A DNA stretch of 64,000 nucleotides from an uncultured Gammaproteobacteria bacterium (GCA_947259075.1 CAMYKQ010000038.1:18750-82749); one strand, 5' to 3'; shown: positions 44,603 to 62,621, counted from the first letter of the stretch. Program-made: numbers and translations. Notes: generated from the letters alone by a model not told the origin.

Positions 44603-45612
44603 GCGTTCTCTCGCGCCGCGATATCGACGGCCAATTGCAAGGCCGCATCCAGGCTGCCGGACTCGGCGCCGCCCTTGCCCGCCAATTCCAGCGCGGTGCC
44701 GTGATCGACCGAGGTGCGGATGATGGGCAAGCCCAGGGTGATGTTCACCGCTTGGCCGAAGCCTTTGAACTTGAGCACCGGCAGGCCTTGATCGTGATAC
44801 ATCGCCAGCACCGCGTCGGCGGTATCGAGATGTTTGGGAATGAACAAGGTGTCGGCGGGCAGGGGGCCGATCAGGTCCATGCCCGCGCCGCGCAGCGCGT
44901 TGAGTACCGGCTCGACCACGTCGCGGTCTTCCGTGCCCAGATGGCCGCCTTCACCCGCGTGGGGATTGAGGCCGCACACCACGATGCGCGGCGCGGCGAT
45001 GCCGAAGCGCGCGCGCAGATCGTGATGCAGGATCCGTATCACCCCCGTGAGGTGCGGCGCGGTGATGGCGTCCGCCACGTCGCGCAGCGGCAAGTGGGTG
45101 GTGGCCAGCGCCACGCGCAGGCCTGCGGTGAGCAGCATCATCACCACTTGATCGCTTCGGGTGTGCTCGGCGAGAAATTCAGTGTGGCCGGAGAAGGCGA
45201 AGCCGGCGTCATTGATGACGCCTTTGTGCACCGGGCCGGTGACCAGGGCGGCGAAGTCACCCTGCACGCAGCCCTGGGTGGCCGCGCGCAGGGTGTCGAG
45301 CACGTAAGCGGCGTTGGCCGTATTGAGCTGGCCGGCTTGTACCGCGGCGCGCAAGGGCACGGGCAAGACCGTCAGCGTGCCGGCCGCTTGCGCGCGCGGC
45401 GGCTGTTCGGCATTGAATTCATTGAGCGCGAGGGGCAAGTCCAGTTGCGCCGCGCGTTGCGACAATAAAACCTGATCGGCGACCACCACCAGCTCGGCGG
45501 GATACGGGCGCTGCGCCAGCATCACGCAGAGGTCGGGGCCGATGCCGGCGGGCTCACCGGGGGTGATGGCGATGCGCGGCACGGCGGGCGGATAATTTCG
45601 GGGCTGAGTCAT
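44599..45612 (-). CDS. pdxA: 4-hydroxythreonine-4-phosphate dehydrogenase.
   Basis: [15 protein letters not shown]...GHTE...; its stop overlaps the rsmA start. Confidence 0.9.
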
Positions 45613-45693
45613 GGGAAGGGCTTTTTATCACTTCCCCCGCCGCGGGTCCACTGCGGCCGTGATCCGCGTGCCCTGGCGCGCGGCGGCTGGCGT

Positions 45694-48600
45694 TTAATAG
45701 GTGCCTTGCAGGCGCAGGAACCAGCCGTGTACCGAGTAGTCGTTGTCGGAGAATTCACTGTCGGAGAAATCGGTGAAATTGTAGCCGCCGCCGACGCGCA
45801 CATGCTCCATGGCACGCCACATCACGTCGGCGGCCCAGCCTTGGCGCTGGTCGTCGGTCTCTTGCTGGCTTAACAGCCGGTATTCGGCGCCGAGGTCGAT
45901 GCGCGGGCGGATACGGTAATTGAGCCGGTTGATGGACAAGAAGGTAGTGGTGGCGATGCTGGGGCGGCCGCCCGCGCGTTCTTCTTTCATGCGCAACGCC
46001 AGTTTGTCCACCCATTCCAAGGCGGGCGTGAGCTCCAGCGACCATTCGATGGAGGCGATGTCGCGGCTGATGTTTTGCATATCGCCGGCGCCGAGACTGA
46101 GCGGGCGCTGATCGGCTTGGCGGGTGTAGCGCGCCAGGGCGTTGAAACGGTCGCTGGCCACGGGGCGGTAGGCTAGCCCTAAGCTGCTTTCTTCAAACTC
46201 CGCTTCCACGACATCGTTGTCGAGGTCGCGGCTGAGGCTGTAGCGGTATTTGCCCAGCAGGGTGTAATCGGGATCGAGCTTCAATTCCGCGCTATTGGTC
46301 GAGAGGAATTGCTCGCGTTCTTGTACCCCGCTTTCGCGGCGCAGTTCGTTGCGGGTGCTGGCGCTGAGTCCGCGCGGATGGCTGTAAGACAAGCCGGTGG
46401 CGATGGCGTAGCGGTCCGAGCCGCCGCTGGCGGCTTGGATCTTGCCCAGTTCCGCCGCCAGCAATAATTGCAGGCCGCGCCGCAGCCGCCATTTTTGTTC
46501 GGCGCCGATCAAGGAGACGTTGCGGTCGCCTTGGTCCGCTACTTCCCATTGGTATTCGGAATAGACCTTGCCGTCACGGCCCAGCGGTGATTGGGCGCCG
46601 ACGATGGTGGTATTGCGGCCGTTGTTTTGCATATCGCGGCTGAGGCGCTGGGTGAGGTAGAGGCGGTTGCCGTCGAGATTGAATTCCGCGCCCAATTCCG
46701 CGGCCTGCCCCAGGCTGCCGCTGATGCCTTTGGCCTTCAAGGTCAAGGCGGAGCTGAGGCTGTAATCAACGCCGATACCGGTTTGATCGTTGTCCGCGCC
46801 GCTGAGGGTGAATTGCTGCTCAATGGAGGCGGTGAGTTTTTCGGTGACGCGCAGACGCAGCTCGGCGGCCATCAGGCTGCTGTCATTGATGCCCGTGGCG
46901 GCGTTGCTGGTCTCTTTTTGCTGGTATTCCGCCGTGGCGCTCCAGCGTTCGGCGGCATGGCGCAGTTGCGCCGTCGTGGTACTGCTTTCGCTGTCACCGC
47001 TGGCGGACAGGATCTTTTCCTGATCTTGGCGCAGCAACACCTTGTCACGCTCGCTCACTTGCAGGCTCATGTTCAGTCCGCTTTTCTCCGACGAGATTTC
47101 ACTGCTATTGCCGTTGGAGATGAAGCCCGGCCCCAGGCGTTTCATGTAGGCGCCCATGCGATAGCGGTTGGCCTGGCCGAACCATTCGCCGATGTCCATT
47201 TCCGCGGCGAGTTTCCACGCTTGGCCGCTGCTGGTGTCGAGCGGCGTGGTTTCCTTGAAGCTGAGACCGCCGTCGTCACTGTAGAAGCTCTGGCCGTCGC
47301 TGCCTTCGCTCTGCGCCATTTCGGCGAGCAGGCGGGTGCCCTTGCCCAAGCGGATTTCGGTGTCGAGGCCTTGCAATTGATATTGTCCGGCGGCGCCTTC
47401 GTCTTGCACGTAGGTGCCGCCGATGGCGACGTGGTCGTTGAGCTGCTGGCGCACACGGCCGCCGCTGGCGCTCTTCTCGAAGAAGGCGGCTTCGGTTTCA
47501 TAGTCCACTTCGATGGAGACGGGATTGCCGCCCAGCAGCGCGCGATCGACGAGGCGGCTGTCGGCTTGGGTGCTGGCCAGCGGCCGGGTGAAGAGGATGC
47601 GGCCTTCGACGTAACGGATATTGTAATCGGTGTTTTGCTGCTGCGGCTGGCGTGAGAGCACCAGGCCGGTGTCTTTATCGCGCACCACCAACGTGACTTG
47701 TTCGCTGCCTTCGATGATGTCGCCGTGGCTCAAATAATAGAGTGAGCCGCCGGTGGCGCGCAGTTCGTCGCGCACGTGCATTTGCCGCACCGCCGCGCTG
47801 AATACCGCGACTTGGGTATCGGGGGCGCCGTATTGAGTGCGCGCCAGGCTTTGATAGGCGAGACGGCCGCCGAAGAGGGTGCGCTGATAGGTGGCGAGTT
47901 CGGTGTCGGTGAAATTCACCGGGTAGTTGCCGATCACCGCATGCAGTTCATCGCTGTCCACCGCGAGATAGAATTTGCCGCTGCTCTCGCTGTCGTAGAC
48001 CACGGTGCTGTCGTCGCCGTAGACCGGATAGAGTTTGTCGGGATCGATGTTGGTGAGCAGGCGGTCGTTCTCGGCGCGGTCGAGGTCTTTGAACATATCG
48101 CCCAGCTCGTTCGTGCCGCTGTCGAAGGCGGAGGTGACGAGGTATTTGCCCGCGATCACGCCTTTCAAGTAATAGGCAATGCGGCCCTCGCTGTAGAATT
48201 GCGAGGCGCCATCCATGCCCGCCCCCTGCACATAACCCTTGGCCTGCATCTGGCCGATCTTGCCGTCGGCGAAGGCGAGCAGGAAGAGTTTGGAATCGCG
48301 CACCTCGATATCGCGGCTGATGCGCCCGCTGTTGCCCGCCGGATCGCTCACGTTCACCTCGATGCTGCTGTGGCCCAGTGGCAGGGTCACGGTGGTGCTG
48401 AAGCGGCCGTCGTCTTGCAGCGCCACCTCTTTGGCGTTGACGCTAACCTTATTGCCCGGCTCGGTGGCGCCGCTCACCACCAGCACCGGCGAGGTGAGTG
48501 CCGCGTCCTTGGGCGGGAAGTTCACCGCGAGGCGCGGCACGGGTTGCACCAGCAGATACAGCGCGCCGTTTTCATCGCGTGCGCTCACCTTGACCTTCAA

Positions 48601-51600
48601 GTCCACCACGCGGGTGAAGTTGGCCTCGTTGCGCAGCAGCAGGGTGAAGAAGTTGACACCCTGTTTGAGTTTGATGTCGGCGGCGAAGCGGCCCGCGGCT
48701 TCGACGGGCAAGCGCCGGTCATCCAGCTGCACGATATTGCCCGGCTCGGTGCGCCCGTGCAGACGGAAGCCCATGACGATCTCTTCTGGCGCGGCGCGCG
48801 CCACGACATCGCGCGCGTCGGCGTAATAACCTTGTTCATCATCGCGCGCGCCGTAAGGCACGCGGACTTCACCGGCGGGCAGGTTTAAACTGGGCACGGC
48901 GATACGCGCCAGCGAGGACTTATCCTGCGCGCTGGTCAACTGAATATCGAACTCCGTGGCCGAGGCCGGCTCGATTTGGGTTTGGAAGACGCCGCCACCC
49001 TGCAATGGCAGTGTTTTACCGTTGATGACGGCGCCGGGTTCGGCGCGGTATTGATCGGTGACGCTGATGGTCTCGACCTTGCCCACCAGACCTTTGATCT
49101 CCACGCGGCGGTTCAGCTCGCGGCCCTCGGGCAGGCCGTTGCTCGCCATGGGCCGCCGCGAGCCGAAGCCGCGCACCACCAGCCGCTCACGCGGGATGTC
49201 TTCCTCTTCCATGAGATATCTCGCCGCCGCTTCGGCGCGTTCTTGCGAGAGGCGTAGATTGGCCTCATCGCTGCCGATGGAGTCGGTGTGGCCTTCGATC
49301 ACCACCTTCTCTTCCGGGAAGCGCAACAACAGCGCCGAGGATTCGCGCAGCGCCTGCCGCGCGGCGGGGCTGAGCTGGGACGAACCCAGTTCGAAGGCGC
49401 CGCCGGTGAGATTGACGGCGATGGCCGAGCTGCGATTGACGCCCACTAAACGCCGCGCGCTGCGCGCGACGCCGTCATCGGCGTAATCCAGCTCCAGTTG
49501 ATATTCGTAAATCTCGCCGCCTTCGAGCAAGTCGCCGTGATCGTCGCGCGCATCCCATTCGATGACGGGCGGCGGCGCGCCCTCGCCGCGCAGGGTGCGC
49601 ACGGTCTGGTGCGCGGCATTGTTCACGGTGAACAACCAGGCGTTCACCTTTGCTTTGCTATCGATGTTGACGCTGAGCCGCAGCGGTTGTTCGAGTTTGC
49701 CGCTGTTGATATTGATGAGATCATCCACGCTGGTGAGGCCGAGTTTGATGTCGCCGTTGGGCAGCGCCAGCGAATAACCGTTGACCAGCGCGGTGAGCAT
49801 TTCCACGCTGCCGAAGACGCTGGCGGGTTTTTCACCGAGTTCGGTTTGCGCGCGCAGGCCGTGGTTGGCGGCGCGGCCTATGATCTCGACCTCGTGCTGG
49901 TAAATCACGCCGAAATTGGCCTTGGCGAGCAGACCGGGCGTGATGTTCACCACGGTGATTTCCTCGGTCGTGACTTCGGCGCCGGCGTCCAGCGCCTGCA
50001 GATTTATTTTCAGCGCGCGCGGTCCCGGTTTGACCGCGGGGAAGTGGTAACGGCCGTGTTCATCGGTGAGGGCGTAGCTGCCGTTGTCCAGCACCACCAT
50101 GGCGCCGCTCACGCCTTTTTCGCCCTGGTCCTGTTTGCCGTTGCGGTTGGGGTCTTGGAAGACCTTGCCGATGATGGTGCCGAGATCGAAGACCGGATCG
50201 AGCGTCACGCTCACCCGGGCCTCGGCGTTATTGGAGATGTAGCAGACATCGCAGACGTCGAGGGCGTAAACGGTGTTGACGTATTCGCGCGGCGTGGCGC
50301 CCGCGCCGACGATCAATTGATAGCTGAGCGTGGTGTAGCCCTGTTCGCCGGGATCGGCGCTGCCATTGCCGTTGCTGTCCACCCGCGCGAGCAGGGTGCC
50401 GAGGCCGAAGATCAAGGGCCGGTGACCCGCCGGGTCGGGCGCCAGCGCGCCATTGAGGCGGGTGCTGCCGGGCACGTATTTGAAATTGGGCGGCAGGGCG
50501 TCATGCAGTTTGACTTGCAGCACGTCCTTGTCGGTGATGTTTTTGATGATGAGCGTATAGGTGACGACATCGCCGATCACCACCTCGTCTTTGTTGGCGA
50601 GCTTGGTGATGTCGAGCACGCGGCCTTGAGTGAAATACACCTTGGGCTGCGTGAGCAACACGATATTGTCGCTGATGTCGGTGGCGCGCAGGGTGGCGAC
50701 GCCGATGGTGTTGGAGCGGATCTGGGCGATGGCGCTGCCGTCGGCGCCGGTGGGCGCGCCGGCTTGGGTGATCGTATCCAAGGCGCCGCGATCGGAATCG
50801 AACACGACGGTTTTGCCCGGCACCCGCAAGCCGCTGGTGTCGATGAGGGTGGCGCTGAGCGTGCTGGCGGCGCTGCCGTCGGCGATGACGATGAGCGGTT
50901 GCGCGGTGACGATGGAGGCGAGCGGATCGACGCCGAACACGGTGCTGACGGCTAGGCCGTTGCCGTCGCCGGGATCGCCGTCGGCGTCACCCGCGCTCAC
51001 CGCTTGCGGCGCGGCGGGCGTGGCGCTGTCATCGACCGTGGCGCTGAAGACGCTGGCGCCGCTTACCAGCGGGGCGTTGGCGCTGAAACGCAATTGCAGA
51101 TTGCCGCTGGCGCTGAGTTTGGCGCCGAGTTTGACGCTCATGGTGGCGCCGCTGATGCTGGCGCAGTATTGGCCCGCGGCAGGCGCGGGGCACGCGGCCG
51201 CGAGCGCGCCGCCGTTGACGCTGAAGCCGGTGATGGCCAGCCCCATGAAGCCGGTGGGCGCGGTGACGCTGAGCAGATCGACGCCGCTGTCGCCGGGGTT
51301 GATGGCGGGCAGCACGTCGAAGGTAAAGGCGATGCCGGTGGCGCCCACCACCACGCTGGCCGGGGTGATTTCGCCCACGGCCGCGGTGACGGCATTGGCG
51401 TTGTCGTCGTTGTCGATGCTGTGCACGTGTTGCGCGATCGCGCCCAGGGTGGCGTTGAGCGGATTGCTGAGATTGACCACGACGGTCTCGTTGCTCTCCG
51501 TATCGGCGTCGTCGATGATCGCGAGGCTGATGTCCTTGCTGGTCTCGCCGGGATTGAAGATGAGCGTGCCGCTGGCGAGGGTGTAATCCACGCCGCCGCC

Positions 51601-54600
51601 GGTGGCGGTGCTGGCGGGATCGACGCCGTAATCCACGCTGACGGGCAGGCCGCTGGCGGCGGAGAGCGTGACGGTGATTAATGCGCTGGGGATATTCTCC
51701 AGCGCATTGCCGCCGGCGGCGGCGAAGGCGGCGCTGGGCGCGGCGTCGTTATCGTTGAGGGTGTAGCTGTGTTGCGGCGTCGCGCCGAGGATGGCGTTGA
51801 CGGGCGCGCTTAAATTGATGACCACGGTTTCGTCGCTTTCGTCCAAGGCGTCGTCGTTCACCGCGAGCGAGATGGCCTTGAGGGTGTCGCCGGGGTTGAA
51901 GGTGAGCGTGCCGCTGGCGAGGGTGTAATCGACGCCGCCGCCGCTGGCGGTGCCGGCGGCGTCGATGCTGTAATTGACGGTGATGATTTGGGTGCTGGCC
52001 GTGGAGAGCGTGACATTGACGCTGACCGGCGTGAAGGCTTCATCGCCGTTGGCGCTGGCGGCGGCGAAGTTGATTACCGCGGTGTCGTTGTCGCTTACGT
52101 TTACCGTGATGTTGGGAATGGCGAGGGCGTTGTAGTTCAAATCCGCGCTCGCGGCGCCGTGGGTGATGCTGGCACTGTGCGGGCCTTCGGCGATGGCATC
52201 GTCGATGGCGATGACGGTGACGGTCTGCGCGTTATTCCAATTGAGCGGAGTGAAGGTGAGCGCGACGGCCGTGCCCGCGCCGGCGCCCAAATCGGCTTGC
52301 GCGTCGGGGGTGACGGTAATGACGACGTTGGCGCCGGGCGCGGAGTCGAGCACCACGGTGTAGCTGTCGCCGGCGCCGCCCTCGCTGGCCGTGGTCGCGC
52401 CGCCGGACTCGTTAAACGTGACGCCGGGCAGATCGTTGTCGCTGATGGACACCACGATATTGGGAATGGCGAGGGCGTTGTAATTTAAATCCGCGCTCGC
52501 GGCGGCGTGGGTGATGACGGCGCCGTGCGGACCTTCGGCGCTGGCGTCGTCGACGGCGGTGACGGTGACGGTCTGCGCGTTGTTCCAATTGAGCGGGGTG
52601 AAGCTGAGCGCGACGGCCGTGCCCGCGCCCGCGCCTAAATCCACTTGCGCATCGGGGGTGACGGTGATGACGACGTTGGCGCTGGGCGCGGAGTTGAGCA
52701 CCACGGTGTAGCTGTCGCTGCCCGGGCCGGTTTCAGCGACGCTGGTGCCGCCGCCGGATTCGCTCAGGGTCACGCCGGGCGTGTCGTTGTCGGCGATGTT
52801 CACCGTGATAGTGGGGATGGCGAGGGCGTTGTAGTTCAAATCCGCGCTCGCGGCGCCGTGGGTGATGGTGGCGCTGTGCGGACCCTCGGCTATCGCGTCG
52901 TCCACCGCGGTGACGTTGACGGTCTGCGCGCTATTCCAGTTGAGCGGGGTGAAGCTGAGCACGACGGCCGTGCCCGCGCCCGCGCCCAAATCCACTTGCG
53001 CATCGGGGGTGACGCTGACGGTGACGTTGGCGCTGGGCGCGGTGTTGAGCACCACGGTGTAGCTGTCGCCGGCGCCGCCTTCGCTGGCCGTGGTGACGCC
53101 GCCGGATTCGTTGAGCGTCACGCCGGGCACGTCGTTGTCGCTGATGTTCACGAGCACATTGGCGATGACCAGGCCGTTGTACGCGGCATCGGCGCTGTTC
53201 GCGCTGTGGGTGATGCTGCTGTTGTGCGGGCCTTCGGCGCTGGCGTCATCCACCGCGGTGACGGTGACGCTCTGCGCAAGATTCCAGTTGAGCGGGGTGA
53301 AGCTGAGCACCACGGCCGTGCCCGCGCCGCCGCCTAAATCCACTTGCGCGTCGGGGGTGACCGTGAGGGTAACATTCGCCGCCGGTTGCGTGGCGAGCAC
53401 TAAGGTGTAGCTGTCGCTGCTCGGTCCGGTCTCGTTGACATTGGTGGCGCCGCCGGATTCGCTGATCGTCACCGCGGCCGCGTCGTTGTCGTTCACGGTG
53501 TAAACCTGTTGCGGGGTGGCGCCGAGGCTGGCGTTGCTGGGATTGGCAAGATCGATCATAACGGTTTCATTGCCTTCGGCGATGAGGTCATCGTTCACCG
53601 CGAGGCTGATGACTTTGCTGGTCTCGCCGGGGTTGAAGGTCAGCGTGCCGTTGGCGAGGGTGTAATCGATGCCGCCGCCGCTGGCGCTGCTGGCGCCGTT
53701 CACCGCGTAATCCACGGTGACGGTTTTACTCGAGGCGGCGGACAAGGCCACCGTGATGTTCACCGGCGTCACGGATTCCGCGCCGCTGGCCGCGGCGGCG
53801 GCGAAGCTCACGCTGGGCGCGGGGTCGTCGTCGGTGATGGTCGCGGTATGCACGGTCGTGCCGCCCGCGAAGGCATTGACGGGCGTGCCCATGGTCACAA
53901 CGACGGTTTCGCCGTCTTCGTCGAGCGCGTCGTTGACGACGGTCACGGTGATATCCGCGCTCAAACTGCCCGCGCTGATAATGAGAGGGCTGGCGGTGAT
54001 GGTGTAATCCGCCGGGTTGTTTGCCGTGCCGCCCAGGGTGAAGGGCAGGCTGACGTTCTGCGCCGAGACTTGTGACAGTTGCGCGGTGATGGTGAGCGTG
54101 CCCGCGTTTTCGGCGCCGCTTTGACTGGCGGCGGTGAAGCTGACTTGCGGCAAGACCGTCACGCCTTGCGTGTTGGCGTCCGCCGCGTCGCCATCGGCAT
54201 TGCCCGCGGTGGTGGCCTGCGCGGCGATAGAGCCGGTGCCGGTGTCGTCGACAGTGGACGTGAAGTTGCCGCTGCCGAGTGCGCCGGGCGCATCCGCGTT
54301 GAAGCTGATCTTGATGTTGGTGCCGGTTACGCTGACCTTGCTCCCCAAGCGGATGGTCATCACTTGTCCCGCGACGCCTGCGCAGTATTCACCCGCGGCG
54401 GGGGCGGGACAACTGCCCGACGCCGTTTGCGCGCCGCCGCCCAGCGATACGCCGGTGACGCTCAAACCGCCATAGCCCGCCGGGGCGGTGATGGCGATTT
54501 GATCGATGCCGGTGTTGCCGGGATTGATAGCGGGCAGTACATCGTAGGTGAAGTTGATGCCGCTGCTGGCGGCCGGTACCGCGGCGGGATCGATTTCAGC

Positions 54601-54780
54601 AACGACCGTGGTGACGGCGGCGTTTTCAGCGGTGACGCTGATTTGTCCCGAGGAGAGCAGGGTGACGCTGCCGCCACCGGGGTCGGTGGCTTCGTTAGTC
54701 GCGGTGCCCGCGCCATGGGCAAAGAGGGACCACAACAGCCCTGCTATGCACAAAAGGCCGGCGCGCATGCGTTGCGGCAT
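45694..54780 (-). CDS. Giant (~3030-3060 aa) secreted multidomain cell-envelope protein. Domain order: signal peptide, DUF11-like N-module, Calx-beta domains, 4 tandem 116-aa repeats, Big_1, DUF11, SdrD-B-like, internal OmpA-like peptidoglycan-binding domain, Ig-like domains, and a ~865-aa C-terminal beta-rich (barrel-like) domain.
   Basis: Probable start MPQRMRAGLLCIAGLLWSLFAHGA (signal peptide). Calx-beta motifs (VNDALDEDGETVVVTM, DDALDESDETVVINL). OmpA-like segment FPEEKVVIEGHTDSIGSDEANLRLSQERAEAAARYL...NRRVEI at about 49130-49430. Alternating-hydrophobic C-terminal 865 aa ending WFLRLQGTY. Confidence 0.8.
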   Translation of the reverse strand: MPQRMRAGLLCIAGLLWSLFAHGAGTATNEATDPGGGSVTLLSSGQISVTAENAAVTTVVAEIDPAAVPAASSGINFTYDVLPAINPGNTGIDQIAITAPAGYGGLSVTGVSLGGGAQTASGSCPAPAAGEYCAGVAGQVMTIRLGSKVSVTGTNIKISFNADAPGALGSGNFTSTVDDTGTGSIAAQATTAGNADGDAADANTQGVTVLPQVSFTAASQSGAENAGTLTITAQLSQVSAQNVSLPFTLGGTANNPADYTITASPLIISAGSLSADITVTVVNDALDEDGETVVVTMGTPVNAFAGGTTVHTATITDDDPAPSVSFAAAAASGAESVTPVNITVALSAASSKTVTVDYAVNGASSASGGGIDYTLANGTLTFNPGETSKVISLAVNDDLIAEGNETVMIDLANPSNASLGATPQQVYTVNDNDAAAVTISESGGATNVNETGPSSDSYTLVLATQPAANVTLTVTPDAQVDLGGGAGTAVVLSFTPLNWNLAQSVTVTAVDDASAEGPHNSSITHSANSADAAYNGLVIANVLVNISDNDVPGVTLNESGGVTTASEGGAGDSYTVVLNTAPSANVTVSVTPDAQVDLGAGAGTAVVLSFTPLNWNSAQTVNVTAVDDAIAEGPHSATITHGAASADLNYNALAIPTITVNIADNDTPGVTLSESGGGTSVAETGPGSDSYTVVLNSAPSANVVITVTPDAQVDLGAGAGTAVALSFTPLNWNNAQTVTVTAVDDASAEGPHGAVITHAAASADLNYNALAIPNIVVSISDNDLPGVTFNESGGATTASEGGAGDSYTVVLDSAPGANVVITVTPDAQADLGAGAGTAVALTFTPLNWNNAQTVTVIAIDDAIAEGPHSASITHGAASADLNYNALAIPNITVNVSDNDTAVINFAAASANGDEAFTPVSVNVTLSTASTQIITVNYSIDAAGTASGGGVDYTLASGTLTFNPGDTLKAISLAVNDDALDESDETVVINLSAPVNAILGATPQHSYTLNDNDAAPSAAFAAAGGNALENIPSALITVTLSAASGLPVSVDYGVDPASTATGGGVDYTLASGTLIFNPGETSKDISLAIIDDADTESNETVVVNLSNPLNATLGAIAQHVHSIDNDDNANAVTAAVGEITPASVVVGATGIAFTFDVLPAINPGDSGVDLLSVTAPTGFMGLAITGFSVNGGALAAACPAPAAGQYCASISGATMSVKLGAKLSASGNLQLRFSANAPLVSGASVFSATVDDSATPAAPQAVSAGDADGDPGDGNGLAVSTVFGVDPLASIVTAQPLIVIADGSAASTLSATLIDTSGLRVPGKTVVFDSDRGALDTITQAGAPTGADGSAIAQIRSNTIGVATLRATDISDNIVLLTQPKVYFTQGRVLDITKLANKDEVVIGDVVTYTLIIKNITDKDVLQVKLHDALPPNFKYVPGSTRLNGALAPDPAGHRPLIFGLGTLLARVDSNGNGSADPGEQGYTTLSYQLIVGAGATPREYVNTVYALDVCDVCYISNNAEARVSVTLDPVFDLGTIIGKVFQDPNRNGKQDQGEKGVSGAMVVLDNGSYALTDEHGRYHFPAVKPGPRALKINLQALDAGAEVTTEEITVVNITPGLLAKANFGVIYQHEVEIIGRAANHGLRAQTELGEKPASVFGSVEMLTALVNGYSLALPNGDIKLGLTSVDDLININSGKLEQPLRLSVNIDSKAKVNAWLFTVNNAAHQTVRTLRGEGAPPPVIEWDARDDHGDLLEGGEIYEYQLELDYADDGVARSARRLVGVNRSSAIAVNLTGGAFELGSSQLSPAARQALRESSALLLRFPEEKVVIEGHTDSIGSDEANLRLSQERAEAAARYLMEEEDIPRERLVVRGFGSRRPMASNGLPEGRELNRRVEIKGLVGKVETISVTDQYRAEPGAVINGKTLPLQGGGVFQTQIEPASATEFDIQLTSAQDKSSLARIAVPSLNLPAGEVRVPYGARDDEQGYYADARDVVARAAPEEIVMGFRLHGRTEPGNIVQLDDRRLPVEAAGRFAADIKLKQGVNFFTLLLRNEANFTRVVDLKVKVSARDENGALYLLVQPVPRLAVNFPPKDAALTSPVLVVSGATEPGNKVSVNAKEVALQDDGRFSTTVTLPLGHSSIEVNVSDPAGNSGRISRDIEVRDSKLFLLAFADGKIGQMQAKGYVQGAGMDGASQFYSEGRIAYYLKGVIAGKYLVTSAFDSGTNELGDMFKDLDRAENDRLLTNIDPDKLYPVYGDDSTVVYDSESSGKFYLAVDSDELHAVIGNYPVNFTDTELATYQRTLFGGRLAYQSLARTQYGAPDTQVAVFSAAVRQMHVRDELRATGGSLYYLSHGDIIEGSEQVTLVVRDKDTGLVLSRQPQQQNTDYNIRYVEGRILFTRPLASTQADSRLVDRALLGGNPVSIEVDYETEAAFFEKSASGGRVRQQLNDHVAIGGTYVQDEGAAGQYQLQGLDTEIRLGKGTRLLAEMAQSEGSDGQSFYSDDGGLSFKETTPLDTSSGQAWKLAAEMDIGEWFGQANRYRMGAYMKRLGPGFISNGNSSEISSEKSGLNMSLQVSERDKVLLRQDQEKILSASGDSESSTTTAQLRHAAERWSATAEYQQKETSNAATGINDSSLMAAELRLRVTEKLTASIEQQFTLSGADNDQTGIGVDYSLSSALTLKAKGISGSLGQAAELGAEFNLDGNRLYLTQRLSRDMQNNGRNTTIVGAQSPLGRDGKVYSEYQWEVADQGDRNVSLIGAEQKWRLRRGLQLLLAAELGKIQAASGGSDRYAIATGLSYSHPRGLSASTRNELRRESGVQEREQFLSTNSAELKLDPDYTLLGKYRYSLSRDLDNDVVEAEFEESSLGLAYRPVASDRFNALARYTRQADQRPLSLGAGDMQNISRDIASIEWSLELTPALEWVDKLALRMKEERAGGRPSIATTTFLSINRLNYRIRPRIDLGAEYRLLSQQETDDQRQGWAADVMWRAMEHVRVGGGYNFTDFSDSEFSDNDYSVHGWFLRLQGTY
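52074..53475 (-). repeat. Four near-identical in-frame tandem repeats (~348-351 bp, 116-117 aa each) inside the giant gene.
   Basis: Protein units VT(I/L/F)(S/N)ESGG...TVTPDAQVDLGAGAGTAV.LSFTPLNWN.AQTVTVTAVDDA.AEGPH...ITH.A.SAD.NYNALAIPNI.VNISDND. The periodicity is also visible in antisense ORFs at 52163, 52511, 52862 and 53213. Confidence 0.85.
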
Positions 54781-54959
54781 GCGTGGATCGCCCATGGCGT
54801 GACGACTTCGCACTATGTGCTCATCGACGTTGCTGACATCGGGAACTAAGACGAATTCACGCGGGCCTGCGTGCAAACGCGGACGCGCGCCGTGGCGCGC
54901 CGTGCCCTAGCGTGAAATCATCCGAGCCGTGCCGGCATGTAAGCCGGCAAGGCCCGGTC

Positions 54960-55571: not shown

Positions 55572-56333
55572 CTTCGTCTCCTCAATAAAACGGACCTATT
55601 GATCTGGGCCGCAGCCGGTCCGCTGAGCGGCTGCGCCAGGTGTTGGCCATCCTTTGCCGGTGACTTTCATGTCGTGACATTTCCTGAGCCCCTTCCAGGG
55701 CTGGACTTTTTTGGCGAGGACAAGAGCTTGAGCGAACGCGAACGCGTTATGACGGCGGGCGGAAGGGATGAGATTGCCCAGATAAACTGTGAGAGTGCTG
55801 TGTGGGTACTGCTTCGTTAGCACTGTTTGCTCAACTCGTTGTTCCCCGTACCCCTCGGGTGCTGCTCATAAAGCCAATCCCACTAAAATTACAAATCAAG
55901 TCGTTATGGTTTTTCGTGAGGCATGCTTGGGCCGGCATCGCGCGCTAAAGCGATGTGCCGGGGATTACAACTTGGTTTTGCCAAGCGGTAAGGCCGGTGC
56001 TTAAAACATGAACTCCGTCATGGAAAGATGTCGGCAGCAGGGGGGATTAATTGAGTGAAGTATGCAGGGGGTTGCTGGGGAGCGTATCTGCATAAGGCCG
56101 AAGTGAATTGAGGGCGCCATGCCACGGCTTAGCGTATTGGGGTAACGGGTTTGCGCGCGGGGGGCACCCCCCGCACCCGGAAAAATATTTGCCCGTCCGG
56201 CGGAAATACAGCCGTGCCGTATGGGGAGTAAGGCCGCCCTGCCGTGGCGGCTTGATGCGGTGTATTGCTGGGATGGTGGGTGCGGCGGTGCGGGCGTCAA
56301 TGCTTGCCGCGGCGCGTTCGACATCTTTTGAGC

Positions 56334-57257
56334 TTATCGCGGCGCGAATGTTTCGTAACTGTGTTCGATGAGGGCGCCGCTGGTCGCGCCATGCTCGGGA
56401 AAGGTGGCAAACCCCGCGATGATGATGACATGCCCGGTGGCAAAGGTTTCCTGTCCCGGGAACGCGTGCTGGTTGATTCTTGCCGTCAATCTATCGAGAA
56501 GCGCCAGCGCGCCGTCGATATTGGTTTCAGGCAGCAACAAGGCGAATTCGTTGTCAGCGTAGCGCGTCAGCGTGTCGGAAGTGCGGATGAAATTGTGCAA
56601 GAACTTACCCAGCGAATAAAGTAATAAATCACTGGCTTTGCTGCCATGCTGGGCTTGATAAGCGCTGAAATCCATGATGCCAGTAATGACCACGGAAAAC
56701 TTGCGTTCATAGCGTTGTGAACGGGAGAGCTCCATGGCCAATATTTCGTGAAAATGTTTTTTGTTGTGCAGTCCGGTGAGTTCATCGATGGTGGCGAGCC
56801 GGTGCAGCTTGCGCGTGACGTTATTCAGCCCGTCGGCGTGTTGTTTTACTCGGTCCGATAATAAGCGATTATCGTGCATCAGCTGGTATTTTTCCGCGGC
56901 GCGTTCGATGACGGTGACGATGATGCCGCTTTCGTCGGTGGGCACGGTAACGCAATCATAGGCGCCCGCTTCCAAGGCATGTTTGGCGATATTCAGCTGT
57001 ACGCGGTGTACGACCGCCACGGTTTGGGTGTTCGTTGAGCGCAAACGGACGTCTTGGATCAGGCGCAGGCCGCCCGCGCTGTCGCGCGTGGTGTTGATCG
57101 CGATAACCGCGAACTGAGTTTTTCTCAACATGCTCAGGGCTTGGGCCGCGTCCGTGGCGCGCATCACGTTGTGTCCGCGCTGGGTGAGCGCCGTGGAGAT
57201 TGAGCTGGCGACGGTTTCTTCGTCGTCGACAATGAGGATGTGCGCTGGATTGGACAT
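56334..57257 (-). CDS. Degenerate REC-GGDEF protein: pseudo-receiver and catalytically inactive GGDEF with a retained I-site.
   Basis: Receiver-like N-terminus ILIVDDEE, but the phospho-acceptor position reads VIAIN (Asn, not Asp) and the conserved Thr and Lys are lost. GGDEF motif replaced by RYADNEF. RTSD I-site retained. Confidence 0.7.
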   Translation of the reverse strand: MSNPAHILIVDDEETVASSISTALTQRGHNVMRATDAAQALSMLRKTQFAVIAINTTRDSAGGLRLIQDVRLRSTNTQTVAVVHRVQLNIAKHALEAGAYDCVTVPTDESGIIVTVIERAAEKYQLMHDNRLLSDRVKQHADGLNNVTRKLHRLATIDELTGLHNKKHFHEILAMELSRSQRYERKFSVVITGIMDFSAYQAQHGSKASDLLLYSLGKFLHNFIRTSDTLTRYADNEFALLLPETNIDGALALLDRLTARINQHAFPGQETFATGHVIIIAGFATFPEHGATSGALIEHSYETFAPR

Positions 57258-57288
57258 TCAGTCGTTACATTTGTAAATATTGTTTGGG

Positions 57289-58281
57289 TTATAGGTCATG
57301 GCTGTAGCCGGTCACTTTGTTGCGTCCTGAGCGTTTGGCGCTATACAGGGCCTTGTCGGCCTTTTCGATAAGGATGCCGGGTTCGTTGCCGTCATCGGGG
57401 AAGTTGGCCAATCCGATGCTGACGGTGATCTTGCCGCCGGGTTGGCATTCTCCCCCGTAGAACGCATGTTCCGCGATATGCTGGCGAAGATTGTTGGCCA
57501 AGATTAAGGCGCCGTCCTTCGTGGTTTCAGGAAGAATCAATACGAACTCCTCCCCGCCGTAGCGGGCCACGGTGTCGGATTGGCGCAGGCGATGGCTGAA
57601 TATGTCGGCCAGATTTTTTAATAGCTCGTCACCTTGCGGATGACCGTGAGTGTCGTTGTAGTGCTTGAATTGATCGACATCGATGAAGAGCAAGGAATAT
57701 TGGCGCTTATGGCGCAAGGCGCGCGCGTGCTCGATGCCGATGGCTTCGAAAAAATAGCGGTGGTTGTAGAGGCCGGTCAGACCGTCCTTAACCGCCAGTT
57801 CTTGCAAGACGTGATTGACCTTTTCCAGTTCGACATTGTGTTTTTTCAGGCGGCTGACCAGCAGCTTGTTGTCATGAATAAGCCGGATTCGTTCCACGCT
57901 GCGATTAATGACATTGGTCACGATCTCGAATTGTTCGAAAGGTTTAATCAGATAATCAGTCGCGCCGGCGCGCAGGGCGCACACCGCCGAATGCAGGGAG
58001 GCGTAGCTGGTTATGATGATGACTTGGGTGTCGGGCTCGCTGGCCTTGATTTTCTCCAGCACCTCCAGTCCGCTGATATTGGGCAGGCGGATATCGACCA
58101 GCACCAGCGGGTGGCGCCCTTGTTCGAATAAGGCTAAAGCGTGTTCGCCGTCGGCGGCCGTGGTGACTTTGTGGCCTTCATCCGTCAAGAGTTCTTCGAG
58201 GACGTTGCGCAGGCTTTCTTCGTCATCGATCACTAAAATATCGATACCGGAACTCATGTCATTATGGCCGGCATTATTCAT
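57289..58281 (-). CDS. Response-regulator diguanylate cyclase (REC-GGDEF).
   Basis: LVLVDIRLP receiver Asp. RQSD I-site. RYGGEEFVLILPE. Confidence 0.85.
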   Translation of the reverse strand: MNNAGHNDMSSGIDILVIDDEESLRNVLEELLTDEGHKVTTAADGEHALALFEQGRHPLVLVDIRLPNISGLEVLEKIKASEPDTQVIIITSYASLHSAVCALRAGATDYLIKPFEQFEIVTNVINRSVERIRLIHDNKLLVSRLKKHNVELEKVNHVLQELAVKDGLTGLYNHRYFFEAIGIEHARALRHKRQYSLLFIDVDQFKHYNDTHGHPQGDELLKNLADIFSHRLRQSDTVARYGGEEFVLILPETTKDGALILANNLRQHIAEHAFYGGECQPGGKITVSIGLANFPDDGNEPGILIEKADKALYSAKRSGRNKVTGYSHDL

Positions 58282-59279
58282 TTTTTTGGCGAAGACAGGC
58301 CGGGGTTCGAAGTCTCGGCCTTGATGACTTGATTTCGCCCCGATTTTTTTGCCTTGTAAAGCGCTTGGTCGGCTTGGTGAAGTACGCTGGAAGCGTCGTC
58401 GCCGTCTTCCTTGAAGGTTGAGACGCCGATGCTGGCCGTGAGTTTGCCGCCAGGCTGAGTTTCTCTGCCCGCGAAGGGATGATTCTCAACTTCTTCTCTG
58501 ATGCTTTCCGCCAGGATGGTGGCGCCTTCCTTGCCGGTTTCCGGCAGTAAGAGCACGAATTCCTCGCCGCCATAGCGCGCGGCGATATCGGAGGTGCGCA
58601 AGCGCTCGCGCAGCAGCTCGCCGAGCTTATGCAGCAACTGATCGCCCAAGGGGTGTCCATGGGTATCGTTGTACTTTTTGAAATAATCCACGTCGATAAA
58701 GATGAGTGAGAAGGGACGCTGGTGGCGCCGCGCGCGGGCGACTTCCATGGTCAGGGTTTCTTGAAAATAACGGTGATTGTACAGTCCGGTGAGGCCGTCG
58801 CGGATGGCGAGCTCCCGCAATACTTGGTTGACGTTTTCGAGTTCATTGTTGTAACTCTTGAGTTTCTCCACCAGCTGCTTGTTTTCGATGACGAGACGGA
58901 TTTTCTCGGTGGCGCGATTGACCACCGCGGAGATCAGCTCCAAGTCTTCAAAGGGTTTTATTAAATAGTCATAAGCGCCGGCGCGCAGCGCGTTCAAAGC
59001 GGTGTCGAGCGAGGCGTGGCTGGTCATGATGACGACTTGGGTCTCCGGATTTATTTCTTTAATTTTATTCAGAAGATCGATGCCGCTCATGCCGGGCATG
59101 CGGATGTCGGTGATGACCAGGACATAGTGGGATTGCGTGAAAAAGGTCAGCGCCTCTTCCGCGCTGGCTGCCGTGGTAACCGGATAACCGTCGTCGGTCA
59201 GCACCTCATGCAGTACTTCGCGCAGGCTTTCTTCGTCGTCCACGACGAGGATGGGCAGTGAATTCTTTTCACTCATCAA
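58278..59279 (-). CDS. Response-regulator diguanylate cyclase (REC-GGDEF), paralog of the downstream gene.
   Basis: VLVITDIRMPGMSG. RTSD I-site. RYGGEEFVLLLPE. 4-bp overlap with the next gene. Confidence 0.85.
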   Translation of the reverse strand: MMSEKNSLPILVVDDEESLREVLHEVLTDDGYPVTTAASAEEALTFFTQSHYVLVITDIRMPGMSGIDLLNKIKEINPETQVVIMTSHASLDTALNALRAGAYDYLIKPFEDLELISAVVNRATEKIRLVIENKQLVEKLKSYNNELENVNQVLRELAIRDGLTGLYNHRYFQETLTMEVARARRHQRPFSLIFIDVDYFKKYNDTHGHPLGDQLLHKLGELLRERLRTSDIAARYGGEEFVLLLPETGKEGATILAESIREEVENHPFAGRETQPGGKLTASIGVSTFKEDGDDASSVLHQADQALYKAKKSGRNQVIKAETSNPGLSSPKK

Positions 59280-59454: not shown

Positions 59455-61314
59455 TCAGCCCGCGGCGGCGCGCGCGTCAACCTCCTTGGGCGAGACCGTG
59501 GCCGGCAGGGTGATGACGAAGCTGGCACCCTGTCCCGGCTCGCTTTCGATATGAATCTCGCCTTGGTGATCGCGGATGATGCCATAGCTCACCGATAGCC
59601 CCAGGCCGGTGCCTTTGCCGACCGCCTTGGTGGTGAAGAAGGGCTCGAAGATCTTGGCTTGAATTTCCTTGGGGATGCCGGGGCCGGTGTCGCTCACGCG
59701 CACCTCGAGCTTATCGCCGTCCAGCAAGCGCGTGCTCACGGTGACCGAACCGTTCTTGCCGTCCATGGCCTGTTGGGCGTTGATCATTAAATTCATCAGC
59801 ACTTGCTGCAGCTGATTGCCATTACCCATGAATTTGGGCAGGTCCGGCGTGAGCTCTTTGTTGAGCTTGACCTGGTTGATGGTGAGCTGGTGATCGACGA
59901 TGGCGCAGGCCTCGCTTACCACGTTATTGAGCTCGGTGATTTCCATCGCCACTTTTTCCTGACGGGCGAACCTCATGAGATTTTCGATGATCTCCTTGCA
60001 GCGTTTGGTCTCTTTTTCGATGAGACTCAAGTGCCGGTACACGGGGCTTTCCTTGTCGACCTTGCGCATCGACAGTTGCGCGTAGCCGAGGATGCCCGCC
60101 AGCGGGTTCTTCACCTCATGGGCGATACCGGCGCTGAGCTGGCCGAAGGCGGACATTTTTTCCGACTGCACCAGCGCGGCCTGCGCCTGTTTGAGTGCCT
60201 CCTCGCGGCTGTGCAGCTCGGTGGCCATGTGATTGAAGCTGTGGGCGAGCTCACCCATCTCGTCATTGCTGGTGATGTCGACGTGGATATCGAATTTACC
60301 CTGCCCGACCTCGCGGGCGGCGAGGGAGAGCTGTTCCACCGGCCGGGTGATTTGCCGCGACCAAAACAGGCTCATGAGCGCGGAGAGGACCAGCAGACCC
60401 AAGCTGACGCCGGTTAAGTTGTTGAGCAATTCGCGCGCGGTCAAATAGGCGGCGGATTTGGGTATCTGCGTGCCCAGCACCATTTTCGACACCTCGACGC
60501 GGGCGAAGGCGCCCACCATCTCGTTGCCGTTGGCGAGGTATTCCAATGAACTGGCCGCGGTTTGGCCTTTTATCAAAGGTTCCAGCGCGCGCAGGGTGTC
60601 CAAGGGCAGCCAGTCCAGCGGCGCGCGGGCGCTGACGTGTTGCGGCTCGCGGCTGACGAGAATGTTTCCGGCGTTGTCGACGATGAAGATCTCGAACACG
60701 CTGGTGCGGTCCGCCACCCGCAGCAAGGCGTCCATTTTAATGGTGGCGGCGGCGATGACGGGCGCTTCGGTGTCGGTCAAGGCCACCGGCGTGGCGAGGA
60801 CGAAGGCCGGGAGTTTATCGTTGAGGGTGGCATTGAACACGAAAGGCCGTTCCGTGGTGATTTTGTCGAAGGGCAGCGGGTTGGCGTCGCGAAAGGCTTG
60901 CAGGTCTTGTTTGGCGAGCCCCGCGCCCTGCAGGCCGCGGGCGTCGAACACCGTGGCTTGTTCAGTTTTGTTTTGATAGAGCGTGACGGCGATGAATTCC
61001 GGGAAGTCTTCGAACAGACCCTCCAGTAATTTGGCCTTTTCCTGTTGCGGCAGGAAGGGGTCGTACATCACGCGGCCGAAGACCTGTAAGCGCTCGTTAT
61101 ACCCTTGCACGATGGAGTTCACCTCTTCCGCGGCGTGCACCGCCACCAAGGAGGTCAAGTCACGAATATAGGTGCGCTTGTCGCTGTGAAACAGATTGGC
61201 CATGGTGAAGGTGATGACGCTCACCACGATGGTAATCACCACCAGCAAGGACAGCAGGATTTTGAAGCGCAGCGGAATGCGCAGGCCGCGGCGTGGCGTG
61301 GTAACGGCGCTCAT
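59455..61314 (-). CDS. Sensor histidine kinase with a periplasmic (Cache-like) domain, HAMP, HisKA and HATPase.
   Basis: TM1 ILLSLLVVITIVVSVITFTM. ~270-aa periplasmic region. TM2. HAMP. H-box SEKMSAFGQLSAGIAHEVKNPLAGI. G-boxes DTGPGI and GKGTGLGLSVS. Confidence 0.85.
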   Translation of the reverse strand: MSAVTTPRRGLRIPLRFKILLSLLVVITIVVSVITFTMANLFHSDKRTYIRDLTSLVAVHAAEEVNSIVQGYNERLQVFGRVMYDPFLPQQEKAKLLEGLFEDFPEFIAVTLYQNKTEQATVFDARGLQGAGLAKQDLQAFRDANPLPFDKITTERPFVFNATLNDKLPAFVLATPVALTDTEAPVIAAATIKMDALLRVADRTSVFEIFIVDNAGNILVSREPQHVSARAPLDWLPLDTLRALEPLIKGQTAASSLEYLANGNEMVGAFARVEVSKMVLGTQIPKSAAYLTARELLNNLTGVSLGLLVLSALMSLFWSRQITRPVEQLSLAAREVGQGKFDIHVDITSNDEMGELAHSFNHMATELHSREEALKQAQAALVQSEKMSAFGQLSAGIAHEVKNPLAGILGYAQLSMRKVDKESPVYRHLSLIEKETKRCKEIIENLMRFARQEKVAMEITELNNVVSEACAIVDHQLTINQVKLNKELTPDLPKFMGNGNQLQQVLMNLMINAQQAMDGKNGSVTVSTRLLDGDKLEVRVSDTGPGIPKEIQAKIFEPFFTTKAVGKGTGLGLSVSYGIIRDHQGEIHIESEPGQGASFVITLPATVSPKEVDARAAAG

Positions 61315-62621
61315 GGGAAGCGTCCTTGCACCAGTTGCGAGCGAAAGCTGACATTGCCGGCGGGGTCCAGGGCTTGCACCACCAGCACATTGCTGCCGCT
61401 CTCCAATTCGAGCTCATATTCGAAGTCGCCGTCGGCCCGCGGGGTGACCGGCTTGCCGGCGATCAGCAGCCGTGCGCCGGGCTCGGTGTGGCCGCGCACT
61501 CTTTGTTTGGACTCAGTGGTGATAGCCGGAGGAAATTCCACGCTCAGCAGCGGCGGGTCGGTGTCGCGCACTAATTCGAAGGCGCGCGCCGCGCTGGGCG
61601 GGCTTTCCGCCAAGGACGTCAGGCCGCTGACCCGCCAATAGTATTTCCCCGGCTTTAAATTGCCGTGAGTGTAGTGTTTCTCGGCGAGCGTGGTGGAGAT
61701 CACGATGTTGCCGAAGGCGGGATCGCGCGCCAGACTGAAATGAAAACGTTCCGTTTTTTCCTTCGTGTCCCAGCGGAATTGCACTTGCGGCGCTAGATCG
61801 CGGTAGTAATACACGCTGGCGTCGCCGGGTGCCGTGGGCAGCGGCGCCTTGGGCGGGGTGATGGCGCGGGTCGCCACGCCCGCGTCGCTGATGGTGGCGG
61901 CTTGATTGGCTTCGATGCGCAAGGCTTTGCCGCTGGCGGTGAGTAATTCCGCCATGCCGCTGAACACCGCGAGGGTGGATGTGTTATCGGGATTCACGGT
62001 GATCTTGAAGTCGGTCTCGCCCCGCGCCGCGGCGGTGGAGCTTAGCCGCGCCACGCCGTTGGGCGTGGCGACTTCCAAATGAATCGCGTCGCCGCTACTG
62101 GCCGTGAGTGTGCCGGACAGTTCGCCGTCCACCGCCATGGAGAAGGCGCGCCGGCCGCGCAATATAGGATCGCTTTCCATGCGGCGTATCACCACCAGCG
62201 AGTTCTCGCCCAGTTGCAGACGGTTATTTTCATCGAAGGCGATGACCGCCGTGGCGCCTTTCTGTGTTTGCACGGCGTCGCGATCGCGCAGCGCCATGCC
62301 GGCTTGGGCGTCGCGCCAGGCAATGGCGTCGGCCTGTTTGCTTTTCACCGTTTGCTGCGTGGTGCTGAGGGTGGCTACCACCGAGCTCGCATCGCCCAAA
62401 TGACCGTCCGCGCCGGGTCCCGACACCAATATATCCCGTCCGCCGGCGCCGCCGCGCGCCGCGCCCTTATCGCCGCGCATCAGGTCTTGGAAGCCGGTGC
62501 CGAGGGGAAAGAAGGTTTGCATCATGCCGAGGATGATGGCAAAGAAAACCAGCACCAAAACGATCGCGGCGACCGTTTCGGCGGATTTCGCCATAGCTGA
62601 CTTTAGCCGTCCAGGCACCAT
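61311..62621 (-). CDS. Membrane-anchored FecR-domain protein with a C-terminal Ig-like domain.
   Basis: N-terminal TM AAIVLVLVFFAIILGMM. FecR-like segment AVIAFDENNRLQLGENSLVVI. C-terminal beta-sandwich-like RVRGHTEPGARLLIAGKPV...ALDPAGNVSFRS. Its stop overlaps the HK start (ATGA). Confidence 0.7.
   Translation of the reverse strand: MVPGRLKSAMAKSAETVAAIVLVLVFFAIILGMMQTFFPLGTGFQDLMRGDKGAARGGAGGRDILVSGPGADGHLGDASSVVATLSTTQQTVKSKQADAIAWRDAQAGMALRDRDAVQTQKGATAVIAFDENNRLQLGENSLVVIRRMESDPILRGRRAFSMAVDGELSGTLTASSGDAIHLEVATPNGVARLSSTAAARGETDFKITVNPDNTSTLAVFSGMAELLTASGKALRIEANQAATISDAGVATRAITPPKAPLPTAPGDASVYYYRDLAPQVQFRWDTKEKTERFHFSLARDPAFGNIVISTTLAEKHYTHGNLKPGKYYWRVSGLTSLAESPPSAARAFELVRDTDPPLLSVEFPPAITTESKQRVRGHTEPGARLLIAGKPVTPRADGDFEYELELESGSNVLVVQALDPAGNVSFRSQLVQGRFP

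Follow-up and report, generated by a model that had tools for sequence, protein, structure and literature searches.

The window, i.e., the whole stretch of 64,000 nucleotides (nt) analyzed here (uncultured Gammaproteobacteria bacterium, CAMYKQ010000038.1:18750-82749), contains a ~17-kb block encoding a FecR-like periplasmic protein, a sensor histidine kinase (HK), three REC-GGDEF proteins (RG1, RG2, and RG3), a small secreted DUF11/CLIPPER-like protein and a giant envelope protein (Table 1). All genes discussed below lie on the minus strand. The block sits between surA (62808-63989) and pdxA-rsmA (43805-45612), which are usually neighbors in an lptD-surA-pdxA-rsmA cluster. The FecR-like protein and the giant have an immunoglobulin (Ig)-like domain in common, a fact that says little in itself because this domain belongs to PF09136, a very common bacterial family. 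The conserved neighborhood of the giant, FecR-like, HK and REC-GGDEF genes is, by comparison, strong evidence for a functional link between them.

Table 1. Genes and domains of the signaling and giant-protein block, numbered from the first nucleotide of the window (AF2, AlphaFold2; aa, amino acids).
Feature	Position	Strand	Basis
FecR-like periplasmic protein, 436 aa	61311..62621	(-)	Pfam, hydropathy, AF2, Foldseek
FecR-like C-terminal Ig-like domain (PF09136 type), aa 355-433	61323..61559	(-)	Pfam, AF2
Sensor histidine kinase (HK)	59455..61314	(-)	Pfam, hydropathy
REC-GGDEF response regulator 1 (RG1)	58278..59279	(-)	Pfam, motif check
REC-GGDEF response regulator 2 (RG2)	57289..58281	(-)	Pfam, motif check
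REC-GGDEF 3 (RG3), degenerate	56334..57257	(-)	Weaker Pfam scores, sequence
Small secreted DUF11/CLIPPER-like protein, 203 aa	54960..55571	(-)	NCBIfam DUF11 repeat (weak), signal peptide, homologues in loci
Giant envelope protein, 3060-aa open reading frame (ORF)	45694..54876	(-)	Pfam, NCBIfam
OmpA-like peptidoglycan-binding domain of the giant, aa 1828-1923	49108..49395	(-)	PF00691, 81 bits
Giant Ig1, aa 2030-2112, divergent PF09136-like	48541..48789	(-)	hhalign, AF2 strands
Giant Ig2, aa 2113-2192, canonical PF09136	48301..48540	(-)	Pfam, hhalign, AF2
Giant C-terminal outer-membrane beta-barrel region, aa 2197-3060	45697..48288	(-)	AF2, Foldseek

The giant protein and the signaling genes

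The giant is composed, from its N-terminus, of four Calx-beta domains, Big_1, DUF11, SdrD_B, the OmpA-like domain, Ig1, Ig2 and a C-terminal barrel region of ~860 aa. Its N-terminal 1700 aa are occupied by adhesin-stalk domains (Calx-beta, Big_1, DUF11/CLIPPER, SdrD_B), and both Ig domains are located between the OmpA domain and the barrel region. In the AF2 model, Ig2 ends ~4 residues ahead of the first predicted barrel strand. The barrel region itself is made of ~40 long predicted strands up to the C-terminal ...GWFLRLQGTY, with a predicted local distance difference test score (pLDDT) of 83.4. No Pfam model matches it in the giant, and a distant homologue of the region clears the cut-off of the Pfam family OMP_b-brl. 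The best Foldseek matches were MtrB, SlpA (Deinococcus), SprA, LptD, FimD and TonB-dependent transporters, all with template-modeling (TM) scores of 0.26 or below; the best structural matches are barrels of 26-36 strands. If the ~40 predicted strands form a single closed barrel, this barrel would rank with the largest known. The Pfam families Autotransporter and IAT_beta were not matched in the giant, nor were Plug, STN and TonB_dep_Rec, and a classical or inverse autotransporter was rejected, as ~40 strands are predicted rather than a 12-stranded autotransporter or intimin-type barrel. Since OmpA-like domains bind peptidoglycan and the barrels of outer-membrane proteins begin on the periplasmic side, Ig1 and Ig2 would be located at the periplasmic rim of the giant barrel.

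More than 1069 homologues of the C-terminal part of the giant (Ig1-Ig2-barrel) were retrieved from the protein database, and the GTDB species genomes contain at least 575 loci encoding it. These loci belong to Gammaproteobacteria (Woeseia, Tenderia, Acidiferrobacterales), Nitrospirota, Desulfobacterota, Acidobacteriota, Eisenbacteria and others, and members of the family are named only "OmpA family protein." The start of the giant ORF (TTG at 54876) was probably placed too far upstream: M37, at 54768, precedes a typical signal peptide and is likely the true start. Also, the N-terminus of the giant (54600-54768) resembles that of the small DUF11-like protein, with 44% identity over 57 aa. The similarity extends over the signal peptide and the ~35 residues that open the mature chain (ATNxxTDPGGGxVxL..SG), and this common N-terminus may be a shared sorting or assembly signal.

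The FecR-like protein begins with a single transmembrane helix (aa 16-34), preceded by ~15 aa according to both hydropathy and AF2, and continues with a disordered linker (39-79), a FecR beta domain (~81-255), an FN3-like domain (262-350) and the Ig domain (355-433). As the initial annotation had proposed, the protein is almost wholly periplasmic. Its AF2 model reached a pLDDT of 81.8 overall and of 94-96 in the Ig domain, which forms the end most distant from the membrane anchor. The family carries a periplasmic FecR domain: the window protein scored 21.8 bits against PF04773 (FecR domain), just under the cut-off of 24, and PF04773 was matched by 15 of 18 family members (best E-value 2e-13); 17 of the 18 matched PF09136. 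Foldseek also related the model to 4m0n, the structure of a putative anti-sigma factor FecR domain (TM score 0.49, r.m.s.d. 3.3 Å). Nevertheless, the designation "anti-sigma-like" given to this protein in the initial annotation did not hold. With ~15 aa ahead of the helix, it has no cytoplasmic anti-sigma domain; neither DUF4880 nor FecR_C was matched in the window protein or in 18 relatives (Pfam); and no extracytoplasmic function (ECF) sigma factor gene occurs within the operon, where the neighbors are the HK, the three REC-GGDEF genes, the DUF11 protein, the giant, surA and pdxA. Because the anti-sigma domain, FecR_C and a nearby sigma partner are all absent, we regard it as a FecR-domain protein and rejected its identity as a FecR-type anti-sigma factor.

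The Ig domain is the best-conserved segment of the FecR-like protein, with a mean pairwise identity of 36.5% among 35 orthologues vs. 33.0% for the FecR domain. At one locus (L039), originating from a single metagenome-assembled genome (MAG), the gene following the giant encodes a protein of 253 aa (L039:13131-13892) reduced to the transmembrane helix, an Ala/Pro/Ser-rich linker and a FecR-type PF09136 Ig domain; the FecR and FN3 domains are lacking and no kinase is present downstream. Conservation, position at the distal tip and the L039 protein weakly favor a role of the FecR-type Ig domain (hereafter FecR-Ig) beyond that of a spacer.

The HK, whose start overlaps the stop of the FecR-like gene by 4 nt, contains two transmembrane helices (aa 19-37 and 296-314) on either side of a periplasmic region of ~258 aa, followed by HAMP, HisKA and HATPase_c domains. 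An intact GGEEF motif and an RxxD I-site are present in both RG1 and RG2. Judged from their domains and motifs, these genes correspond to a predicted two-component system with diguanylate-cyclase output, i.e., production of cyclic di-GMP (c-di-GMP). RG3 displays YADNEF instead of GGEEF and an Asn at the position of the receiver Asp, and may be a c-di-GMP receptor or adaptor instead of a cyclase. The gap of ~760 nt between the last REC-GGDEF gene and the small DUF11 gene (55572-56333) is probably the regulatory region of the DUF11-giant transcription unit. An ORF located there (56001-56324, 107 aa) was taken as non-coding, its product being Pro/Arg-rich and of low complexity, with 0 homologues in related loci. 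A promoter and terminator scan of 45500-63000 remained at background level and is thus uninformative as to transcription units.

The Ig-like domain common to the two proteins

The initial annotation reported an Ig-like domain shared by the C-terminus of the FecR-like protein and by the segment of the giant located between its OmpA and C-terminal domains, with a second, weaker copy in the giant. Our data confirm these observations. The peptides concerned are RVRGHTEPG...NVSFRS (aa 374-428) in the FecR-like protein, and LVVSGATEPG...GRISR (aa 2132-2188, strong copy) and HGRTEPGNIV...FAADIKL (aa 2040-2070, weaker copy) in the giant. BLASTP of the FecR-like C-terminus against giant aa 1993-2192 gave 39% identity over 69 aa (41.6 bits, pairwise E-value 1e-10), and 32% over 38 aa (E-value 2e-4) for the weaker copy. 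Against PF09136 (Glucodextran_B), for which the Pfam gathering cut-off is 27 bits, FecR-like aa 357-431 scored 28.5 bits (31.9 when scanned alone) and giant Ig2 (aa 2114-2192) scored 34.9 bits (43.4 when scanned alone). In related loci, PF09136 was matched by 27 of 28 FecR-Ig domains and by 29/29 giant Ig2 domains, with weaker overlapping matches to Big_6 and Big_13. Profile-profile similarity, the absence of which would have refuted the proposal of the initial annotation, was significant: hhalign aligned 36 FecR-Ig sequences to 45 giant Ig2 sequences with a probability of 99.6% (E-value 2e-24) and to 40 Ig1 sequences with a probability of 98.9% (E-value 2e-17), and Ig1 to Ig2 with a probability of 99.4%. 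Ig1 was picked up by this profile comparison only, not by the PF09136 scan. It corresponds to the second copy and is a full domain, with AF2 strands at aa 2035-2097 (pLDDT ~85-89).

Both Ig regions were modeled by AF2 as confident beta-sandwiches of ~80 aa (pLDDT 85-96). The motifs G.TEPG, DG.F and D.AGN, which had been put forward as common to the two proteins, are present, but they are hallmarks of the whole PF09136 family and are not specific to this pair. They also align to domain B of the Arthrobacter glucodextranase (PDB 1ug9), the only solved sequence relative (1ug9/1ulv residues 691-769, profile E-values 7e-5 and 8e-6). The shared module is an ordinary Ig-like beta-sandwich of the PF09136 (Glucodextran_B) type, and few stalk or spacer domains are as common as PF09136 in the envelope proteins of bacteria.

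The specificity of the similarity was assessed by an exhaustive phmmer search of 1.84 billion representative proteins with the FecR-Ig (85 aa) as query. Matches were obtained in 3465 representative proteins at an E-value of 1e-3 or lower, and in 1023 at 1e-10 or lower. The best 150 of these proteins carry 4-44 tandem copies with 30-40% identity. In 128 of the 150, one copy scores at least as high as the giant Ig2 at 41.2 bits (BLASTP best high-scoring segment pair; median 48, maximum 66), and the same is true of 125 of them by phmmer per-domain score, where Ig2 reaches 22.3 bits. A subtilase, beta-helix proteins and a BamB-like propeller protein are among those that score better. Also, 24 of 116 other giants have an Ig domain closer to the window FecR-Ig than the one in the giant of the window itself. 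On average, the FecR-Ig shares 26-28% identity with Ig2, vs. 23% between Ig1 and Ig2, and among same-locus pairs the FecR-Ig and Ig2 of the window, with 37-39%, are at the upper end. The FecR-Ig and the giant Ig do not evolve in concert, and the occurrence of PF09136 in both proteins is explained by membership of the domain family and not by a duplication or exchange specific to this gene pair.

Combinations of the FecR domain with PF09136 were also found elsewhere. Two unrelated FecR-domain proteins, also among those that score better than the giant, carry four or five PF09136 repeats, and P0017 (L008:8772-10748) is a FecR-Ig-barrel-OmpA fusion. Judged from these cases, FecR with PF09136 recurs as an architecture of its own. 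P0017, P0154 and P0177 each have, in one chain, a FecR domain, PF09136 repeats and OmpA/outer-membrane barrel or LysM, which suggests that FecR-Ig modules are generally associated with the outer membrane and the peptidoglycan layer.

Conservation of the operon

The profiles built in this analysis were used to annotate 79 fetched loci. In ~30 species genomes belonging to several phyla, the genes are arranged in the usual order: small DUF11 protein(s), giant, FecR-like, HK and REC-GGDEF. The FecR-like gene (E-values from 1e-86 to 1e-172) directly follows the giant stop codon in 30 of the 79 loci, with a median gap of ~0 nt. The HK gene stands next to it in every locus with enough flanking sequence, followed by 1-3 REC-GGDEF genes where the contig allows. 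Most related loci also have one or two small DUF11-like genes ahead of the giant. The link between the giant and the FecR-like/HK/REC-GGDEF genes proposed in the initial annotation is therefore well supported, the genes adjoining one another across phyla. In the window the order is rearranged with respect to the usual one, the signaling genes coming first.

Altogether, three gene orders are found among the loci in which the giant adjoins the FecR-like/HK/REC-GGDEF genes, and the genomic settings vary. The FecR-like orthologue comes after surA in L001 and L005, and in close relatives of the window (L001 and L005/L006) the position is directly after lptD-surA. In L003, the module follows the gene of a methyl-accepting chemotaxis protein with the same order as in the window, and in L007 the order is small protein, giant, FecR-like, HK and three REC-GGDEF. 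More distant relatives carry the module at sites other than lptD-surA. The closest genome is the Gammaproteobacteria MAG nzgw582 (L006/L010), with 68-79% identity. The distance matrices computed for the barrel, HK and FecR-like parts agree with one another (r = 0.76-0.84), which indicates that the cassette was inherited as a unit.

In a more distant barrel subfamily (29-33% identity; Kangiella, Leucothrix, Hydrogenophaga, Omnitrophota), FecR-like and HK genes never accompany the barrel gene, and some of the barrel proteins also carry OmpA. The FecR-like partner was found in 31 loci with two-Ig giants vs. 0 among the relatives with one or no Ig domain. This association coincides with a single clade, so that Ig1 is not separable from other clade-specific features. 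In several loci (L075:409-12859, from Leucothrix arctica; L061-L066, L077, and L085), the barrel is a separate protein of ~1240 aa encoded behind an independent giant ORF, of 2845 aa in L075. This suggests that, in the distant subfamily, the same surface structure is encoded by two genes, with neither a FecR-like nor an HK gene alongside. A literature search returned no paper on this operon or on the function of PF09136. The operon appears to be a new arrangement of known parts, widely conserved and apparently undescribed.

Possible coupling to c-di-GMP and comparison with known systems

We lean slightly toward reading the operon as a module spanning the envelope, through which a surface protein anchored to peptidoglycan is coupled to c-di-GMP synthesis. 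The barrel of the giant would hold it in the outer membrane and its OmpA domain would attach it to the peptidoglycan, with Ig1-Ig2 at the periplasmic barrel rim. The FecR-like protein, anchored in the inner membrane by its one helix, would span the periplasm as a linker-FecR-FN3-Ig stalk with the Ig domain at the far tip. It could report the state of the periplasmic module of the giant (assembly, load or ligand binding) to the co-translated HK, which would then phosphorylate the REC-GGDEF proteins and change the c-di-GMP level. The elements of this proposal are not equally firm. The analysis establishes the identities of the domains, elements of the topology and the conservation of the operon with its tightly coupled genes; beyond that, functional coupling of the giant with the FecR-like/HK/REC-GGDEF cassette is highly probable, direct contact between the FecR-like protein and the giant has slightly less than an even chance, and it is improbable that such contact is made specifically by Ig-Ig pairing.

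Several points weigh against this reading. We infer the physical contact between the FecR-like protein and the giant, as well as the contacting domain and the direction of information flow; signaling could also run in reverse, with c-di-GMP controlling the giant. The proposed periplasmic placement of Ig1-Ig2 depends on the known location of OmpA-like domains and on the general topology of outer-membrane proteins. A sensitive Ig profile revealed one pre-barrel Ig, without a FecR-like/HK neighbor, in about half of the members of the distant barrel subfamily; since a pre-barrel Ig exists without the FecR-like partner, Ig2 is an ancestral part of the barrel module. The two-Ig giants of L037 and L021 have no FecR-like gene within 5-10 kb, and nearly all related loci come from MAGs. 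Also, the Ig interface is not singled out by sequence comparison: identity between the FecR-Ig and Ig2 is 27.6% within the same locus vs. 26.2% across loci (22.4% vs. 21.0% with Ig1). When barrel and HK distances are controlled for, the partial correlation of the FecR-Ig is 0.09 with Ig2 and 0.19 with Ig1, in a mirror-tree and partial-correlation test of low power (27 loci, domains of 80 aa).

A more ambitious version of the coupling, which we put forward only tentatively and consider rather doubtful, would be an undescribed type of cell-surface signaling. A giant peptidoglycan-anchored fiber with a ~40-strand barrel would be read mechanically or conformationally by the FecR-like stalk, and the HK would set c-di-GMP. 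The readout may then pass through the Ig modules of both proteins. Such a relay across the envelope would work in the manner of FecA/FecR but act through a second messenger, and its conservation would extend from Gammaproteobacteria as far as Nitrospirota and Acidobacteriota.

Control could instead be exerted from the inside out, although we regard this as unlikely. The FecR-like/HK pair would sense an unrelated cue from the periplasm or envelope, c-di-GMP would govern production, export or retention of the giant, and the Ig domains would be spacers that set length. Such a scheme agrees with PF09136 being a generic stalk repeat, with c-di-GMP being the sole output of the operon, and with the HK having its own periplasmic domain of ~258 aa. 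The degenerate RG3 could serve as a c-di-GMP receptor, and LapD/LapG is an established case of large adhesins being controlled by c-di-GMP (PMC3032553). However, the operon contains no LapD/LapG-like, PilZ or transcription-factor gene, and conservation of the FecR-Ig equals or exceeds that of the FecR domain, which is more than a pure spacer would predict. The giant and FecR-like genes also overlap or abut, which suggests stoichiometric co-production, more typical of interacting partners.

The initial annotation took the shared module as a sign of homotypic contact. According to this explanation, the FecR-Ig would pair with Ig2 or Ig1 of the giant, by Ig-Ig contact or by beta-strand augmentation, and the pairing would be the sensing event. 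The geometry fits, with the FecR-Ig at the distal tip and Ig2 directly under the barrel; no part of the FecR-like protein is better conserved than the Ig, which, with the helix and linker, is all that L039 retains beside its giant; and the FecR-Ig is nearer to Ig2 (26-28%) than Ig1 is (23%). The restriction of the FecR-like partner to loci with two-Ig giants (31 vs. 0) points in the same direction, but it is confounded by a single phylogenetic origin, and OmpA tracks the partner almost equally. A common fold by itself is no predictor of binding. Furthermore, the similarity is at background level for a promiscuous family (3465 matches), there is neither a same-locus excess nor residual co-evolution, pre-barrel Ig domains are present without a FecR-like partner, and FecR with PF09136 is found in unrelated proteins without a giant. 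We thus do not retain the shared module as a sign of contact, and we consider the homotypic explanation quite improbable.

Recent duplication or exchange of the domain between the two neighboring genes, gene conversion included, is extremely improbable and effectively refuted by cross-locus and background similarity: the window pair is at the top of the same-locus range (37-39%), but both domain positions are orthologously conserved across phyla, 24/116 other giants and 128/150 unrelated proteins are closer to the window FecR-Ig, and same-locus pairs show no excess.

The shared Ig domain is by itself a generic building block of little significance, and shared domains between neighboring genes are not to be read as evidence of interaction. 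What matters more is that a family of very large outer-membrane proteins, with at least 575 species-level loci, is tied across phyla to a FecR-like/HK/REC-GGDEF cassette. If the coupling is physical, this module would offer a tractable example of the state of a surface adhesin being converted into c-di-GMP, and would extend FecR-type trans-envelope signaling beyond sigma factors.

In the FecA-FecR-FecI system, the state of an outer-membrane protein is passed through the periplasmic FecR to a cytoplasmic response. The locus described here resembles it by an inner-membrane-anchored periplasmic FecR-domain protein encoded beside a large outer-membrane barrel protein, and a relay of this kind is also what we propose for it. 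Unlike that system, it has no anti-sigma domain, ECF sigma factor, FecR_C or TonB-dependent transducer with STN, and its output is an HK with REC-GGDEF proteins, i.e., c-di-GMP. YfiB-YfiR-YfiN (TpbB) is an envelope-stress c-di-GMP system in which YfiN is a membrane diguanylate cyclase. The likeness, as proposed here, is that of an outer-membrane-associated OmpA-domain protein coupled through a periplasmic protein to c-di-GMP synthesis. However, the OmpA domain of the giant reaches 65 bits against the YfiB model, for a cut-off of 128, the operon has no YfiR- or YfiN-like gene, and its cyclases are cytoplasmic response regulators.

All three Ig domains are of the PF09136 type of glucodextranase domain B (with the related Big_6 and Big_13), but they occur here in one or two copies, in predicted periplasmic positions, in a signaling protein and an outer-membrane protein, and not as repeats of the secreted-enzyme or S-layer type. 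The locus also differs from Lap-type control (LapA/LapD/LapG), which involves the protease LapG, the c-di-GMP receptor LapD and an adhesin exported by a type 1 secretion system (T1SS): none of these domains is present in any gene of the operon, and a signal peptide and a C-terminal barrel belong to the giant itself. CLIPPER has been described as a stalk domain, stabilized by isopeptide bonds, in fibrillar adhesins, and OmpA-like anchors occur in some of these (bioRxiv 10.1101/2025.04.25.650565). Like these CLIPPER/DUF11 adhesins, the giant has a DUF11/CLIPPER, SdrD_B, Big_1 and Calx-beta stalk followed by an OmpA-like domain, to which it adds two Ig domains, the ~860-aa barrel region and a dedicated signaling cassette. 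Finally, a co-encoded periplasmic accessory protein, DbfQ, is reported to regulate the histidine kinase DbfS in Vibrio cholerae (PMC12714742). Common to both cases is a periplasmic protein whose gene lies directly upstream of that of a sensor kinase with biofilm-related output and is coupled to it in translation; the difference is that the accessory protein of our locus is membrane-anchored, multi-domain (FecR-FN3-Ig) and genetically tied to a giant outer-membrane protein.

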